Below are positions 11,378-57,830 of a stretch of 64,000 nucleotides of DNA, piece after piece. Within the stretch, counting starts at the first letter, position 1. Each line of letters opens with the position of its first letter. Source of the DNA: an uncultured Candidatus Saccharibacteria bacterium (GTDB lineage: Bacteria; Patescibacteriota; UBA1384; DTJR01); the NCBI GenBank assembly GCA_964487045.1, contig CAZAOT010000001.1, positions 215,863 through 279,862 of the forward strand, written 5' to 3'. Under the pieces are notes generated by a model. It did no database searches. It saw only the letters and a list, made by a program, of their open reading frames with translations, and had not been told where the DNA came from. The translations under genes and the position numbers were made by a program.

Positions 11378-12405
11378 CGCAGATCTATAAAATATTGCTC
11401 CTGATTGTTTCAGTGATTTTTATATATGTGATTTTTAGGCAGCTTGGAGACCTGACCAGAGCTGTTGAGACCCTGTCCAAGGGTTCATGGTATTTTATCC
11501 TGCCGGTTCTCGGTATTCAGGTGCTGGCGATAGTCAATAAAGGCGCTCTTTATCAAACGCTCTATGATTATTTCAAGGTGAAAGACACGCTTTGGCGACA
11601 TATCAAGATGCAGCTCGCGGCAAACTTTTTGAATCTCGCTGCGCCCTCGGGTGGATTATCCGGAATGGCCGTTTATGTCGCTCAGGCCAAATCACATGGA
11701 GTCTCCAAGAGTCGCTCGACGTTTATAAATTTCTTTGCCTACTTCTTATACTATGCGGTCTTTACTATTATTCTTCTCTTCGGATTGTTTTATCTAATGC
11801 TCAATCATCAACTCTATCAGTACCAGATCGTAACCGCCTCAATCCTGTTTGGCATGATTATTTTAATTTTAATCGCAGTAATTGCAGTTATCGAAGAGGC
11901 AGCCAGACTCAACAAGCTGTTTTCGCTGGTAGCGAGAATGATTAATTTTATTAGCCGATTTTTCAAGAAGAAAAAGTTAGTCGAAGATCAAGACATTTCT
12001 GCGCTTTCAAAAGAAATTCATAGTTGTTTGAGATATGTCCAAGTCAAATGGAAGGCCTTGTGGCTACCAATTTTTCATGTTCTTTTGGCTGAAGCAATTG
12101 ATATTATGACGTTGTATTATTTGTTTTTGGCCTTCAAATATCCGATTTATCCTGGAATTTTAATAACCGCATACGCTATCTGTGTTTTATTTACCCTAGT
12201 ATCAATCACTCCTGGAGGGATCGGGGTAGTTGAAGCAGCGATGCTGTTCGTATTGTCAAACCTTGGAGTACCGGTAGAATTAGCGGCGGTTGCAGTTTTG
12301 GGGTTTAGAATTATTGGTTACTGGATTCCTTTCGGCTTAGGGTTCTTATCATTTAGGTCGCTTCATAGCGAGAAATTGGAAAAAATCGAGAATGGTACTG
12401 CTTGA
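11359..12405 (+). CDS. UPF0104 / LPG-synthase-TM 'flippase-like' integral membrane protein
   Basis: Multi-TM protein with the GIGVVEA motif typical of the family. It is translationally coupled to the neighbouring genes. Confidence 0.65.
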   Translation: MAKRQVAQIYKILLLIVSVIFIYVIFRQLGDLTRAVETLSKGSWYFILPVLGIQVLAIVNKGALYQTLYDYFKVKDTLWRHIKMQLAANFLNLAAPSGGLSGMAVYVAQAKSHGVSKSRSTFINFFAYFLYYAVFTIILLFGLFYLMLNHQLYQYQIVTASILFGMIILILIAVIAVIEEAARLNKLFSLVARMINFISRFFKKKKLVEDQDISALSKEIHSCLRYVQVKWKALWLPIFHVLLAEAIDIMTLYYLFLAFKYPIYPGILITAYAICVLFTLVSITPGGIGVVEAAMLFVLSNLGVPVELAAVAVLGFRIIGYWIPFGLGFLSFRSLHSEKLEKIENGTA

Positions 12406-13084
12406 TCAATTAGGCCCGAATATCGATCATATTCCGACGCCTAAAAAGAAAAAACAAAATTATATTTGGGCTTTATTTAAAGATATTGTTCTAGTAACTT
12501 TTTTTTCATTTTGTGTTTTCATATTCATCAATTTCCCGGCAATTACATTGATTGGTACTTACAAATTGACTCCACATCGACTCGCTTATGATTTTCCAGC
12601 CCAGGCTGAGACTCAGAGTCCGACTGCTATTGAGTCAAAAACTCCGGAGGCGCCAAAGATTGAACAATATCCTGATAATATGATTTTTATTCCTAAGATC
12701 GGGGTGAAAGCTCCCATCGACTGGGACGTCACAAGTGATAATGTGATGGACGAGCTCGAAAAGAATGTCGTTCATCTCAAGGATACTGATAAGCCGGGTG
12801 GGCCTGGCAATATCTTTGTGACTGGTCACAGCTCAAACTACTGGTGGAAATCAGGAGAGTATAATACGGTCTTCGCTCTAGTTCCTCAGCTTGTCGAGGG
12901 AGATGAAATCATCATCACCTACAAAGGAGAATTTCATTATTATAAGGTCACTGACAAGCAGGAAATGCGAAAAGACGAAGTTTCAAATCATCTCGAATCG
13001 GGTCGGCCAAGACTCACGCTTATGACCTGCGTACCAGTTGGAACGAATTTGAGAAGGATGTTGGTGTTTGCTTCACCCCGTTAG
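12392..13084 (+). CDS. sortase family transpeptidase
   Basis: N-terminal TM helix, catalytic His (VTGHSS), TLxTC motif (LTLMTC) and a conserved Arg. Confidence 0.8.
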   Translation: MVLLDQLGPNIDHIPTPKKKKQNYIWALFKDIVLVTFFSFCVFIFINFPAITLIGTYKLTPHRLAYDFPAQAETQSPTAIESKTPEAPKIEQYPDNMIFIPKIGVKAPIDWDVTSDNVMDELEKNVVHLKDTDKPGGPGNIFVTGHSSNYWWKSGEYNTVFALVPQLVEGDEIIITYKGEFHYYKVTDKQEMRKDEVSNHLESGRPRLTLMTCVPVGTNLRRMLVFASPR

Positions 13085-13232
13085 AGATTAGCGCAAGCCT
13101 TATTATGTTTAATTAGATTAGAAGATAAGAATCGATATTCAAAAATAAACTAAAGGAAGTTTTATCTCTAACGGGGCAAGCCAGTTAAGAAGTAATTTAT
13201 TGAAAATGCACAAGTTTGGTATAATCAATTTG

Positions 13233-40544: not shown

Positions 40545-40655
40545 CTCCTTAGGTTGGCTTACTAGCTACACTATAGCACTATTTAGCCCGTTAGAAATTG
40601 CCGACGCCTTGTATGCGCCGATATTGTGTATTTATATCTTAGTCGGCATCGATTT

Positions 40656-41483
40656 CTAACGGGCCGAGAAATATGTCTCTACAAACTTTTTTGCCGCTTT
40701 GAGATTTTTTATCACCGCTTCTTCGGTGATATTTCCCTTCTTATCAGCATACTGTTCGCACCAAAGTTCGATTGAAATTGGACCGAAATATTTATCGGCC
40801 CTTAATTGACGCAAAAATTTTTTAAGTGGTAATTTGCCCTTGCCGGGAAGGAGATGGCAGTCTTCAATATTACCCGGCTTTTTCGGACTTGGTCTCATAT
40901 CAGAGTCAGAAAAATGAACATGGCCGACTTTTTCTTTAATTTTTTCATAATACTGCATAATATCCATTTCGGCAGTTGCGATGTGGGATGTATCTAAATT
41001 TATAGACTCAAAAGCCTGCATCACGTCGAAGTGATAGCTCGGATTGAGAGTATTGCCAGAGGTGAAATCATCGCGTTTGGTCGCATTTTCAATCACCACT
41101 TTAACTGGTTTGGCAAGCTTGAAGACACTCTTTTGATTTTCAATCAACCAAGTGACGTATTGCGGATCAGAGTAATCCCAAGAATGCAAAATTAAATATT
41201 TTGCCTTCAGCTCCTTGGCGAGTTTAATCGATTTCTCGAGTCTATTTTTCCAGTCGCCCCAAGAATAAACAAATTCCATCGCTGAGTGAATTGATGTGAC
41301 CTTGAGGGAAAATTTTCGCTCTAAGCGTTTAATGTATTTGGAGTCTTGAGAGTCGAGTCGGTCATCGATAATTAATTCGATATTCTTAAATCCAGCTTTT
41401 TTCGCAACCTCAAAGAACCGGTATAGCCCATATCGGTGACAAGATCCGGTCGATAAAGTCAATTGATTTTTAAGTGTAGCCAT
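40656..41483 (-). CDS. sugar phosphate isomerase/epimerase (xylose-isomerase-like TIM barrel)
   Basis: AP-endonuclease-2/XylA-like TIM-barrel pattern in backbone composition. Confidence 0.6.
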   Translation of the reverse strand: MATLKNQLTLSTGSCHRYGLYRFFEVAKKAGFKNIELIIDDRLDSQDSKYIKRLERKFSLKVTSIHSAMEFVYSWGDWKNRLEKSIKLAKELKAKYLILHSWDYSDPQYVTWLIENQKSVFKLAKPVKVVIENATKRDDFTSGNTLNPSYHFDVMQAFESINLDTSHIATAEMDIMQYYEKIKEKVGHVHFSDSDMRPSPKKPGNIEDCHLLPGKGKLPLKKFLRQLRADKYFGPISIELWCEQYADKKGNITEEAVIKNLKAAKKFVETYFSAR

Positions 41484-45831: not shown

Positions 45832-46203
45832 ATGAAGAATGAAATCTTACTTGGAATAGATTTTGGAACTAAGAGAGTGGGGGTGGCTATTTCTCATGGA
45901 TTTATGGCCGAAGGGATAGCGACTCTTGGTTTTTCGAATAAGGAAAGTTTTTATAGTGATTTAAAAAAAATAATTGTAGAGCAAAAAATCGAAAAAATAA
46001 TTGTTGGTTTGCCGATGGGTGTTGATGGTGATACGCATCAAACTTTGTGGACTAGGGAAAGAGGCGAGGAGCTCGGTGAAGAAACTGGCCTACCGGTTAT
46101 TTTTGTTGACGAATCATACTCTTCTGTAGAGGCCGACAAGTATAATTCTGATCGTGATAGCGAATCAGCCAGAATAATATTGGAGCAATACTTGGCCCGT
46201 TAG
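45832..46203 (+). CDS. ruvX: putative Holliday junction resolvase / pre-16S rRNA nuclease RuvX (YqgF)
   Basis: Sequence LGIDFGTKRVGVAIS. The stop codon lies inside the inverted-repeat arm gcccgttagagaca. Confidence 0.75.
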   Translation: MKNEILLGIDFGTKRVGVAISHGFMAEGIATLGFSNKESFYSDLKKIIVEQKIEKIIVGLPMGVDGDTHQTLWTRERGEELGEETGLPVIFVDESYSSVEADKYNSDRDSESARIILEQYLAR

Positions 46204-46211
46204 AGACAACC

Positions 46212-46472
46212 ATGTATTATACTTATGTATTGCGAAGTAGCAAAGATAAGCATCTCTATACAGGTTGCACAAAAGATTTACGGAAGCGCTTAGATCAGCA
46301 TGTTAGAGGGCGGGTTTATCCAACTCAAGCTAGGGGACCATTTGAAGTGATATACTATGAAGCGTGTTTGGATAAGCAAGACGCTTTTGCAAGAGAAAAA
46401 TATTTAAAAACAGGGTACGGGAAACGTTATCTGAAAAACAGGCTTAAGCGCTTCCTGTCTCTAACGGGTTAA
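46212..46472 (+). CDS. GIY-YIG nuclease-domain protein (UPF0213/YhbQ-like), flanked by 14-bp inverted repeats
   Basis: GIY-YIG pattern YYTYVLRS...LYTGCT...R...H. The inverted repeats lie at 46195-46208 and 46456-46469. Confidence 0.75.
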   Translation: MYYTYVLRSSKDKHLYTGCTKDLRKRLDQHVRGRVYPTQARGPFEVIYYEACLDKQDAFAREKYLKTGYGKRYLKNRLKRFLSLTG

Positions 46473-54781: not shown

Positions 54782-55144
54782 ATGGATCTAGTAATAAAAT
54801 CATTATCCGGGGTATTAGAAGACGAAGAAAAAAAAGTAATTAGAAAAAAATTACTTTGGTTTGATGAGCACTTGCCTAATAACTCAATAATGACTGTTGG
54901 AGTAAGACAAAAGATTACCAAAAAAAGCAATCAAGCTTATGAGGTTATTGTCCATTTGAATACGCCAAAAACAAGACGTGCAGTTTATGTCAAAATGGCT
55001 AAGGACAATTTGCCTGATGCTCTTGATCAAATAAGAGAGAAGATTGAAAGAATTGTATTAAAGAAAAAAGATAAGAAGCAAATGAAATTTAAAATTCCGC
55101 AACTGCGGTTCGGGAAGAAGAAGCTTGATGAAAAAAATTCTTGA
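54782..55144 (+). CDS. hpf: ribosome hibernation promoting factor / RaiA family
   Basis: Sequence MDLVIKS...EVIVHL. GGAGG lies 7 nt upstream. Confidence 0.7.
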
Positions 55145-57830
55145 TAGACTTTTTGGCGGTAGCAATTCACGAGAAGTTAGAAAGCTCGATTCTATTGTTG
55201 CAAAAATTAACTCCTTTGAAGAAGAATATAAAAGTTTAAAAGACGAAGAGCTTCCTAAGAAGACTGAGGATTTTAAGCAAAGAATAGCCTCAGGCGAAAC
55301 CCTTGATAGCATTTTGCCTGAAGCTTTTGCTCTTGTGCGTGAAGCATCTGGAAGAGAGATCGGCCAGAGGCATTTTAATGTTCAGATGATGGGAGGAATC
55401 GTTCTGCATCAAGGCAAGATCGCTGAAATGCGAACTGGAGAAGGTAAGACTTTGGTCGCTACTTTGCCTTTATATCTAAATGCACTCTCGGGCAAGGGAG
55501 CTCATCTAGTCACCGTAAACGATTATCTCTCTAAGTATCAGGGAGAATGGATGGGTCGGGTTTATGATCGATTGGGCCTTAAAACAGGGATTATCCAAAA
55601 CCAAGGTGTGAGCTTTATTTTTGATCGTGCCTGGAATAAGGAAAAGACAGAAGATGAAAAAAAGGCAGCCGAAGTATGGGAAGAAAACTTAAAGCCATGC
55701 ACTAGGGCTGAGGCTTACTTAGCTGACATTACTTATGGAACTAACAATGAATATGGTTTTGATTACTTGCGTGATAATATGGCACAAAGCAAAGAGCAAC
55801 TTGTTCAAAGGGATCTTAACTTTTCTATTGTCGATGAAGTTGACTCGATCCTAATTGATGAAGCAAGGACCCCACTTATTATTTCTTCTGCTGCCGAAGA
55901 GTCAGCTTCGCTTTATGCTCAGTTTGCCATGATCGTGCCACAGCTTAAAAAGGATCTGGATTTTGAAGTTGACGAAAAGTTAAAGGCGATCTCACTGACT
56001 GATGATGGAATCTCAAAACTCGAAAAAATTCTGAAGGTAGATAATATTTATAGGCCAGAGACGATCGCATTGGTGCACCATCTTGAGGAGGCGCTAAAGG
56101 CTCATGCACTATTTCAAAAAGATAAAGATTATATTGTCAAAGATGGCGAAGTTATTATTGTGGATGAATTTACTGGCAGACTAATGCCAGGCAGAAGGTA
56201 TTCAGAAGGCTTACATCAGGCTATAGAAGCCAAAGAGGGCGTGATGGTAAATCGCGAATCTGATACCTTAGCGACGATTTCTTTCCAAAATTTCTTTAGA
56301 TTGTATGGCAAGCTTTCCGGTATGACAGGAACGGCTGCGACAGAGGCGGAAGAATTTCATAAGATTTATAAACTTGACGTTGTCGAGATTCCCACCAATA
56401 GTCCGATGGTCAGAATCGATATGCAGGATCAGATTTATAAAAATGAAGCAGCAAAGTTCAACGCCATTAGTGAAAAGATCAAGGAGCTTAGCGAAAAAGG
56501 TCAGCCAGTTTTGGTCGGAACTATTTCGATCGAAAAATCAGAAGTACTATCAAAATTACTTAAACGTTCTGGCGTAAAGCATGAAGTCTTAAATGCAAAA
56601 GCCCATGAGAAAGAGGCAAAAATTATTGCTCAGGCTGGAAGGCTTGGAGCGGTAACAGTTGCAACCAACATGGCCGGAAGAGGAGTAGACATCTTGCTTG
56701 GAGGAAGTCCCCAGATCAAGGAAGAAGCCGATAAAGTCAGAAAACTTGGCGGCTTAGTTGTCCTTGGTACTGAGCGACACGAGTCAAGACGTATAGACAA
56801 CCAGCTTCGTGGACGATCTGGTCGTCAGGGTGACCCTGGGATGAGTCAATTTTACATTTCAATGGATGATGATTTGATGAGAATTTTTGGCGGAGATCGT
56901 CTAAAGGGCATGATGGAGCGTATGGGTTTGCCAGAAGACCAGCCAATTGAACATTCATTTATATCTAAGTCGATCGAATCAGCGCAAAGGAGAGTTGAAG
57001 GGCATAACTTTGATATTAGAAAACATTTAGTTGAATACGATGATGTTATGAATCGACAGAGAGAAGTTTTTTATCGAAAACGAAAAAGTATACTTTCGCT
57101 CGACGTCGAAAAGGACGAGTTCCTGCATGATGAAATTTTGGAAAAACTTTCAGAAGAAGAAAAAGCTAGCTATCTGTCAAATTCTAAAAATGTTGACCCG
57201 AGAGCGATCAGAGATCTGGAGAGAAGAATATATCTCTCTATCATGGACCAGCTGTGGGTTGAGCATCTAAACACGATGGATCAATTAAGGGACTCTATAG
57301 GACTAAGGGGCTATGGCCAAGTCGATCCGCTTATTGCCTACAAAGAAGAGTCGCTAAGGCTTTTTGAAGGATTGATGCATCAAATAGACGACGAAGCGAT
57401 TGATGTCCTCGTAAAAATTAAAATAGATCAATCAGCTTCAAATTCAGCTGCTAAGCCTACCGTGCAAAAAAATAATCCGCTTGAATATCATGGAGCAGAC
57501 GAAACCGAAGGATCTGAAGTCATTGAAGAGACGAAAAATAGTTTAGAAACTTCCGCTCGCCCCGTTAGAGATTTACGAGAAGAAGCTGGTGAGCAGGCTA
57601 ATGATTATACACAAAATCCTGAGATCTCTAACGGGGTAAAAAAATCCCCAGAAAAACTTCCTACTAAGAAAGCTAGCGGCGGGGTGGTTGTCACAGTTAG
57701 AGATGCATCTAAGAAAATGGAGCAAGCGGTTAATCAGTCAGGCTCACCAAAACAAAACTCAAATATTGGACGCAACGATCCTTGTCCGTGCGGCAGCGGG
57801 AAAAAGTACAAAAAATGCCACGGTAAGTAA
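55125..57830 (+). CDS. secA: preprotein translocase ATPase SecA
   Basis: Motifs [14 protein letters not shown], a DEAD-like region, and the C-terminal zinc finger [14 protein letters not shown]. An in-frame inverted-repeat insertion lies in the C-terminal tail at 57560-57635. Confidence 0.9.

Follow-up and report, generated by a model that had tools for sequence, protein, structure and literature searches.

Rickettsia palindromic elements (RPE) are short repeats said to have been described by Ogata and co-workers in Science in 2000, under the title 'Selfish DNA in protein-coding genes of Rickettsia'. We describe here a comparable case in the secA gene of a Candidatus Saccharibacteria bacterium, namely a 77-nt segment bounded by two inverted arms of 13 nt and located in a 64-kb stretch of contig CAZAOT010000001.1 (the window, by which the whole 64,000 nt analysed are meant). 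With this mini-element, in frame in the secA tail, a phenomenon already known gains a new instance. We consider it probable that the segment belongs, as a short and non-coding member, to a family of tiny selfish elements whose only coding form is a cassette carrying a GIY-YIG nuclease gene. The likeness to RPE is one of behaviour only: in both cases short palindromic repeats lie in frame in many coding genes, essential ones included, and are translated and tolerated. RPE, at about 100–150 bp, have conserved interiors and are confined to Rickettsia, whereas here only arms of 13–14 nt are shared, the copies occur in several phyla, and a coding partner (GIY-YIG) with the same ends exists; RPE were set apart by their description.

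The Ssn proteins are single-domain GIY-YIG enzymes whose own genes are flanked by hairpin repeats, beside which they cut single-stranded DNA (ssDNA; Chenal et al. 2025; PMC11893778). Their discoverers called this arrangement identical to an insertion sequence (IS), proposed that NTS/SsnA in Neisseria modulates recombination or transformation, and found the NTS repeats only rarely (2%) inside genes (PMC11893778). The nuclease in the window is likewise a single-domain GIY-YIG protein (86 aa, compared with about 90 aa for Ssn), and both flanks of its gene carry a genome-dispersed repeat. However, i) the flanks here are the halves of one long-range inverted repeat with the right arm inside the open reading frame (ORF), whereas Ssn genes are flanked by complete small hairpins, ii) the present family shows target duplications and is often found in frame within genes, neither of which is reported for NTS, and iii) membership of the published SRM repeat class was rejected, since neither the 64-kb window nor 206 kb of GIY-YIG loci contains a match to the SRM motif, HGTCWYN(0-2)YYVSBRHN(0-5)WNVSBRGN(0-2)RNCYNB.

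REPIN/RAYT systems are similar in combining dispersed, hairpin-forming inverted doublets with a single-copy enzyme gene flanked by the same repeats, but RAYT is a Y1/HUH transposase and not a GIY-YIG protein, and REPINs are extragenic and lack target duplications. Miniature inverted-repeat transposable elements (MITEs) share with the present family terminal inverted repeats (TIRs), a 4-nt target duplication, small size, the presence of several copies and clean loss of the element together with one duplication, and presence/absence between relatives was also found here, in the form of filled and empty secA and ruvX/yceG sites and of identical copies at different sites in L024 and L027. The family differs from MITEs in that its short copies share only the arms with the coding copy, and in that the coding partner with the same ends encodes an 86-aa GIY-YIG protein, not a recognised transposase. 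No DDE gene with these ends was found; an IS1380/piggyBac-type gene between arms was not seen in 1.24 Mb of arm-bearing loci, which is weak evidence given the biased sampling. An integron attC site was considered, as the core GTTAGAG resembles GTTRRRY, but was rejected on inspection, the order of the arms being the reverse of R''...R'. A full-text search of the literature, both for the arm string and for GIY-YIG elements combining inverted repeats with duplications, turned up no description of the family, its incomplete coverage leaving room for an earlier one; a minimal GIY-YIG-associated element with inverted ends and target duplications, which crosses phyla and is often fixed in essential genes, looks like a new variation on the systems above.

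A repeat search recovered the secA inverted repeat as two 13-nt arms, 100% complementary and separated by 51 nt. The sequence-only reading had placed such a pair inside secA, in the variable linker before the zinc finger and with the frame open, and this was confirmed by the repeat search, by Pfam and by the translation, which was as quoted there; of its geometry the pair itself stood, while the spacing (given as about 50 nt) and the end point (57635, actually 57636) were slightly off. Pfam assigned the ORF 55125..57830 (+ strand) to SecA, with matches to SecA_DEAD, PP_bind, P-loop, SecA_SW and SEC-C. Since SecA_SW ends at aa 764 and SEC-C spans aa 882–900, the arm-bounded segment, at about aa 810–836, lies in the linker between them. 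It adds 27 residues and leaves the frame open; two of the phases in which the arms can be read are free of stop codons, and the segment is read in one of them. An identical 900-aa SecA is encoded on an independent Logan assembly (L208), so that the element is not an artefact of one assembly. The program-made ORF begins with TTG at 55125; the 900-aa database protein begins with the adjoining ATG at 55128, which is the likelier start.

As a DNA hairpin the secA arms have a predicted energy of -13.7 kcal/mol (z = -2.6), a stability above that of shuffled sequence. G·T wobble pairs that would lengthen the stem in only one of the strands were looked for, and the strands showed no asymmetry. Comparison of the segment with Rfam gave zero families at gathering score, and the only matches with E < 1 were weak ones to eukaryotic small nucleolar RNAs and microRNAs, far under the gathering scores and taken as noise. 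A left-arm look-alike with 2 mismatches (CACAGTTAGAGAT, 57692–57704), 56 nt downstream of the element, was rejected as an arm. It encodes the conserved SecA peptide TVRD, and the likeness is probably a coincidence because relatives encode TVRD with other codons. In several relatives the right arm stands only 9 nt ahead of this TVRD motif.

The closest two SecA homologues (80% identity) are shorter by 25–27 residues, and in the tail alignment exactly the arm-bounded peptide is missing from P0002. At the nucleotide level, the closest orthologue with DNA available (L001, which encodes P0002; 80% aa identity) shows a single clean gap of 81 nt at about 57558–57638, with its edges at the arms and a length equal to the 77-nt element plus 4 nt. 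A second filled/empty pair from the same clade (L206 and L207) has a clean 84-nt gap around an 80-nt arm-bounded segment, again a difference of 4 nt. Other SecA relatives (P0003, P0004-6, P0010 and P0011) have ARPVRD...ISNGV segments of their own, and the available DNA of such carriers (L002, L003, L205 and L206) contains arm-like sequences with 1–3 mismatches, partly decayed; in L205 the secA arms have collapsed to about 8 nt apart. SecA orthologues without the peptide have no arms. By this comparison of sequences, the secA segment (element plus 4 nt) is shown to be an insertion relative to close SecA orthologues. The suggestion in the sequence-only reading of a mini-element insertion in secA is thus supported by arm-edged gaps in both L001 and L207, and the pattern that would speak for ancestral coding sequence, i.e. 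orthologues carrying the peptide without arm-like DNA, did not occur, the peptide carriers with DNA having arm-like nucleotides.

In a neighbour-joining tree of the SecA core, the element was present in 6 of the 11 members of one clade and in none outside it, the other 5 members being without the segment. The element-bearing SecAs have a common left flank, GCTCG (including L002, L003, L205 and L206), and a common reading phase, so that their history comprises either a single old insertion with no fewer than 4 precise losses after it, or repeated hits at a favoured place; mobility is needed in either case. Instead of being a recent hit, the secA copy may go back to an old insertion that was since lost precisely several times. 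Its arms in the window are still perfect, unlike the decaying arms of related secA genes. In sister lineages the element and 4 nt would have been lost together, through precise excision or deletion, and the copy itself would be a neutral passenger, probably tolerated because the SecA linker is flexible and variable in length and sequence. Such variation among homologues is evident in the tail alignment.

To define the family, species-representative genomes were scanned with the pattern CCCGTTAGARA-(21–81 nt)-TYTCTAACGGG. The arm pair occurred at at least 120 loci, compared with about 17 expected by chance (our own estimate), and the matches listed come from many Patescibacteria classes, Omnitrophota, Planctomycetota, Desulfobacterota, Nitrospirota and others. 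The family arm consensus, Y-CCCGTTAGARAY ... RTYTCTAACGGG-R, is an inverted repeat of about 13–14 nt. The interiors of the short copies (25–150 nt) are unrelated between genomes; within some genomes, copies have identical interiors (e.g. L024/L020/L084 and L027) and, in L024 and L027, different flanks. A perfect 4-nt direct repeat stands beside 46 of 89 short elements of the C-type and 22 of 35 of the T-type (68/124 together), whereas shuffling gave expected values of 8.0 and 2.9, respectively (about 11 together), and 1000 shuffles never gave more than 17 and 8. The duplicated 4-mers are of at least 13 kinds, mostly TNNA. At the family level the flanking repeat is a target-site duplication, and the additional 4 nt of both secA gaps (77 + 4 and 80 + 4) are consistent with a 4-nt duplication.

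Several arrangements of the short copies were observed besides these. In Jorgensenbacteria (L027, 2943–3104 and 6122–6199) there are three near-identical 78-nt copies, two of them in tandem with only GCTCAC between them and located in a single open frame of 215 aa. Some arm pairs are nested or overlap, one element standing in the interior of another (L095, 2335–2437; L015, 2597–2740; L021, 5741–5821; L070, 6534–6586), which suggests that elements insert into one another. One type of interior, ATAGCCCGCC...GCGGGCGAGAT with a GC-rich inner hairpin, is common to some short elements of different phyla (L104, L105 and L086), and another, AGCCGAC...GTCGGC, to the secA copies of L002, L003 and L206 and the window copy at 40586–40664; such shared interior types show that there are subfamilies beyond the arms.

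ORFs of at least 100 aa span 41 of 133 elements (about 30%). Among the genic elements, 36/40 have a length that is a multiple of three, compared with 36/89 of those outside ORFs, and the arms are read in only two phases, PVR (24) and PLE (16), the stop-containing phase never being used. All ten hosts tested proved to be real genes (UvrA, PheT, GatB, ProB, Sua5, PrmC, LpxD-like, POR, Wzy-like and SurA-like). When the element plus 4 nt was excised in silico, the ORF stayed open in 5 of 6 hosts (UvrA, PheT, GatB, ProB and Sua5); the sixth, the LpxD-like copy (L117), has a length not divisible by three, and excising it disrupts the ORF. Four Pfam domain matches improved, three of them to the exact length of the profile: UvrA_inter went from 125 aa and 119 bits to 106 aa and 136 bits (profile, 106 positions), B5 from 86 aa and 69 bits to 67 aa and 80 bits (67 positions), and GatB_Yqey from 163 aa and 133 bits to 139 aa and 149 bits (139 positions), while the two matched stretches of Sua5 became one. 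The AA_kinase match was unchanged. The frame-keeping lengths, the avoidance of the stop phase and the restoration of domains on excision indicate that the genic elements are translated passengers and are not spliced out. An intron or intein was rejected as well, in view of the lack of an Rfam match, the addition of only 27 aa, and the lengths and phases given above. Family members are thereby shown to be often fixed in frame inside real genes; another 20 of the 133 elements give the upstream gene its stop codon.

The full-length member in the window (46195–46469, about 275 nt) lies between ruvX (45832–46203) and yceG, and the 86-aa ORF is its only protein. Its left arm supplies the TAG stop of ruvX (...YLAR*), the RuvX of the element-free L003 ending in ...YLNGK*, and its right arm encodes the C-terminus of the nuclease (...SLTG), directly followed by a TAA stop. 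The Pfam GIY-YIG domain matched residues 1–71 with E = 1e-16, making it a single-domain protein. Eighty metagenomic homologues were chosen by protein similarity alone (65–81% identity, 76/80 matched over all 86 residues). Both arms were found at the same positions in 70 of these 80, the remainder having mostly one-mismatch versions, with the left arm 5–15 nt before the ATG and the right arm in the last codons (...FLSLTG). The ORF is under purifying selection (median ratio of nonsynonymous to synonymous substitution rates, dN/dS, about 0.13). Its synonymous sites have reached saturation (pS 0.74), and yet the left arm, which is non-coding, remains conserved. Positions matching the presumed catalytic residues of GIY-YIG enzymes (Tyr, Tyr, Arg, His, Glu and Asn) show a conservation of at least 90% in the 59 aligned homologue ORFs.

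Arm-to-arm distances in the 1.24 Mb of arm-bearing loci (about 250 pairs) fall into two classes only, 25–150 nt and 250–300 nt. In these loci no arm-bounded unit of more than 400 nt with another gene was found, the pairs enclosing the GIY-YIG ORF or nothing coding; a 2.5-kb unit in L070 was rejected as a chance 9-mer inside a 1037-aa ORF. Within the 206 kb flanking GIY-YIG genes picked by protein similarity alone there are 15 short pairs. At the ruvX/yceG junction the full cassette is present in both the window and L002. L206 carries a short element of 107 nt at this very point, and L003 carries none. In the source organism the cassette occurs at the ruvX-GIY-yceG locus alone, in five sequencing runs; a multi-copy gene was rejected, as five contigs with the identical protein represent this one locus in the five runs. 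The hypothesis that the short copies are deletion derivatives of the cassette was also rejected, since the subterminal AGGAA signature of the cassette was found on only 1 of 302 short-element ends and BLAST with the interiors finds the arms only. A weak AGCGC..AAGCCT likeness to the cassette at 13089–13102 is probably due to chance.

The sole solved relative of the 86-aa protein is UPF0213 protein BH0048 (1zg2; E = 9e-6). NCBIfam gave no specific family for it, and a search of a plasmid database for homologues linking it to Ssn gave two distant matches only. Public records label several of these 86-aa proteins 'excinuclease ABC subunit C', a mis-annotation through the shared GIY-YIG domain.

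By analogy, the GIY-YIG protein is the candidate mobilising enzyme of the family. The arms would be the recognition site of this element-encoded nuclease and may act as a hairpin in ssDNA, as with the related Ssn nucleases, and the enzyme would drive the spread or retention of full-length and short copies alike. In its broadest form, the proposal is that an 86-residue, single-domain GIY-YIG nuclease is the sole protein of cross-phylum elements with TIRs and 4-nt duplications, that these constitute a new enzymatic class of prokaryotic mobile element, and that arm-only copies disperse in small genomes, namely those of bacteria of the candidate phyla radiation (CPR), Omnitrophota and Planctomycetota, and routinely turn into additional loops of essential proteins (e.g. 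SecA, UvrA, PheT and GatB); we offer this tentatively, as a possibility with somewhat poorer than even prospects. Several points weigh against a GIY-YIG-driven family: i) the evidence of mobility is indirect, ii) GIY-YIG enzymes are hydrolytic nucleases, and none is known to be a transposase, iii) 4-nt duplications and CCC...GGG ends are equally typical of DDE transposons, iv) the 1.2-Mb sample without other cargo was biased by the manner of its collection, v) none of the four window copies has a 4-nt direct repeat, the flank pair being CTYG ... TRAA when they are oriented alike, vi) the flanks of the secA copy itself are CTCG and TAAA, without a visible duplication, and vii) because its interior resembles neither the GIY-YIG cassette nor the other copies, the secA copy is not a simple deletion derivative. 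The CTYG ... TRAA pair could be a lineage-specific extended end or could reflect a different mode of arrival.

The main rival is an unseen conventional transposase acting in trans, e.g. an IS1380/piggyBac-like DDE enzyme, which would move the short elements and the cassette as MITE-like units and leave to the GIY-YIG protein the part of an accessory retention or homing factor, as played by TnpB in IS200/IS605. The TNNA 4-nt duplication and the CCC start and GGG finish would be in the style of piggyBac and IS1380, the clean losses of element plus 4 nt look like precise excision, and no GIY-YIG transposase is known. Yet the approximately 250 arm pairs hold only the GIY-YIG ORF or nothing coding (weak evidence, from a biased sample), and the ORF and both arms, the right one within coding sequence, are conserved together across saturated synonymous divergence, so we judge this explanation rather unlikely. 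The size of the single-domain protein, the repeat at the flanks of its gene and the dispersal of that repeat in the genome would also fit a domesticated Ssn-type ssDNA nuclease modulating recombination or transformation, the arms being mainly host-used target sites and the secA copy a site that happens to be genic; the GIY-YIG locus indeed keeps its site throughout five sequencing runs, and also in a relative whose SecA is 73% identical. This is improbable in light of the absence of the SRM motif from the window and the 206 kb of GIY-YIG loci, the single arm on each side of the gene in place of a complete hairpin of 20–50 nt, the genic share of about 30% compared with 2% for NTS repeats, and the target duplications and identical copies at different sites, which indicate transposition.

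Two further explanations concern secA alone. Perfect arms, a hairpin that beats shuffled sequence, and a phase and left flank common to six related SecAs could be taken to mean that the segment is a functional part of secA, i.e. an mRNA hairpin or a linker peptide with a SecA-specific role (translational pausing or regulation). We regard this as highly improbable, since these arms recur across phyla, both within unrelated genes and between genes, and since those of related secA genes are in decay; the segment is, besides, missing from five members of the clade, and Rfam offers no match. For an ancestral coding sequence with a chance palindrome, an idea to which we give practically no credence, nothing speaks except the open reading frame; it is already refuted by the 13/13 inverted repeat, the four arm pairs in the window, a count of arms that no shuffle reached, and the coincidence of orthologue presence/absence with the arms.

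In-frame selfish DNA in essential genes, known mainly from Rickettsia, now extends to CPR bacteria and several other phyla, and has a clearly identified coding partner. Target duplications, orthologous sites both filled and empty, and identical copies elsewhere are the signs of mobility that the family adds on a point, IS-likeness, about which the Ssn authors could only speculate, and an element of about 275 bp makes GIY-YIG-driven transposition directly testable. Insertions can be recognised by the peptides that their arms encode (PVRD/E...ISNG or PLE...SLTG); they inflate and distort protein alignments and domain calls in metagenome-assembled genomes, and arm-supplied stop codons reshape the ends of genes.

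Table 1. Coordinates in the window of the secA element, its host gene and the other family members
Feature	Position	Strand	Remarks
Left arm (terminal inverted repeat) CCCCGTTAGAGAT	57560..57572	+	secA frame reading (R)PVRD
Interior, 51 nt	57573..57623	+	Open in the secA frame, 17 residues; unlike the interiors of other copies
Right arm ATCTCTAACGGGG	57624..57636	+	secA frame reading ISNG(V)
Element with 4-nt flanks CTCG ... TAAA	57556..57640	+	Contains the 81-nt segment missing from orthologue L001; flanks not a direct repeat
Host gene secA, 900 aa	55128..57830	+	Insertion between SecA_SW (to aa 764) and SEC-C zinc finger (aa 882–900)
Full-length family member	46195..46469	+	Arms GCCCGTTAGAGAC / GTCTCTAACGGGT around the 86-aa GIY-YIG ORF 46212–46472
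Short family member, 75-nt interior	13076..13176		After a sortase gene; arm = TAG stop of ORF 12392–13084 (+)
Short family member, 53-nt interior, inner palindrome TGCCGAC/GTCGGCA	40586..40664		Arm = TAG stop of minus-strand ORF 40656–41483, AP_endonuc_2 fold
Flanks of the four window copies	13072–75/13177–81, 40582–85/40665–69, 46191–94/46470–73, 57556–59/57637–40		CTYG ... TRAA

Arms with at most 2 mismatches occur 9 times in the window, compared with 1.0 expected, and 0 of 100 shuffles reached 9. The 8-mer CCGTTAGA was found 8 times (1.4 expected), all occurrences falling in four inverted pairs (13076/13164, 40586/40652, 46195/46457 and 57560/57624). The interiors of the window copies do not align with each other, and in 3 of the 4 copies the C-terminus of a host protein is set by a stop codon in the arm.

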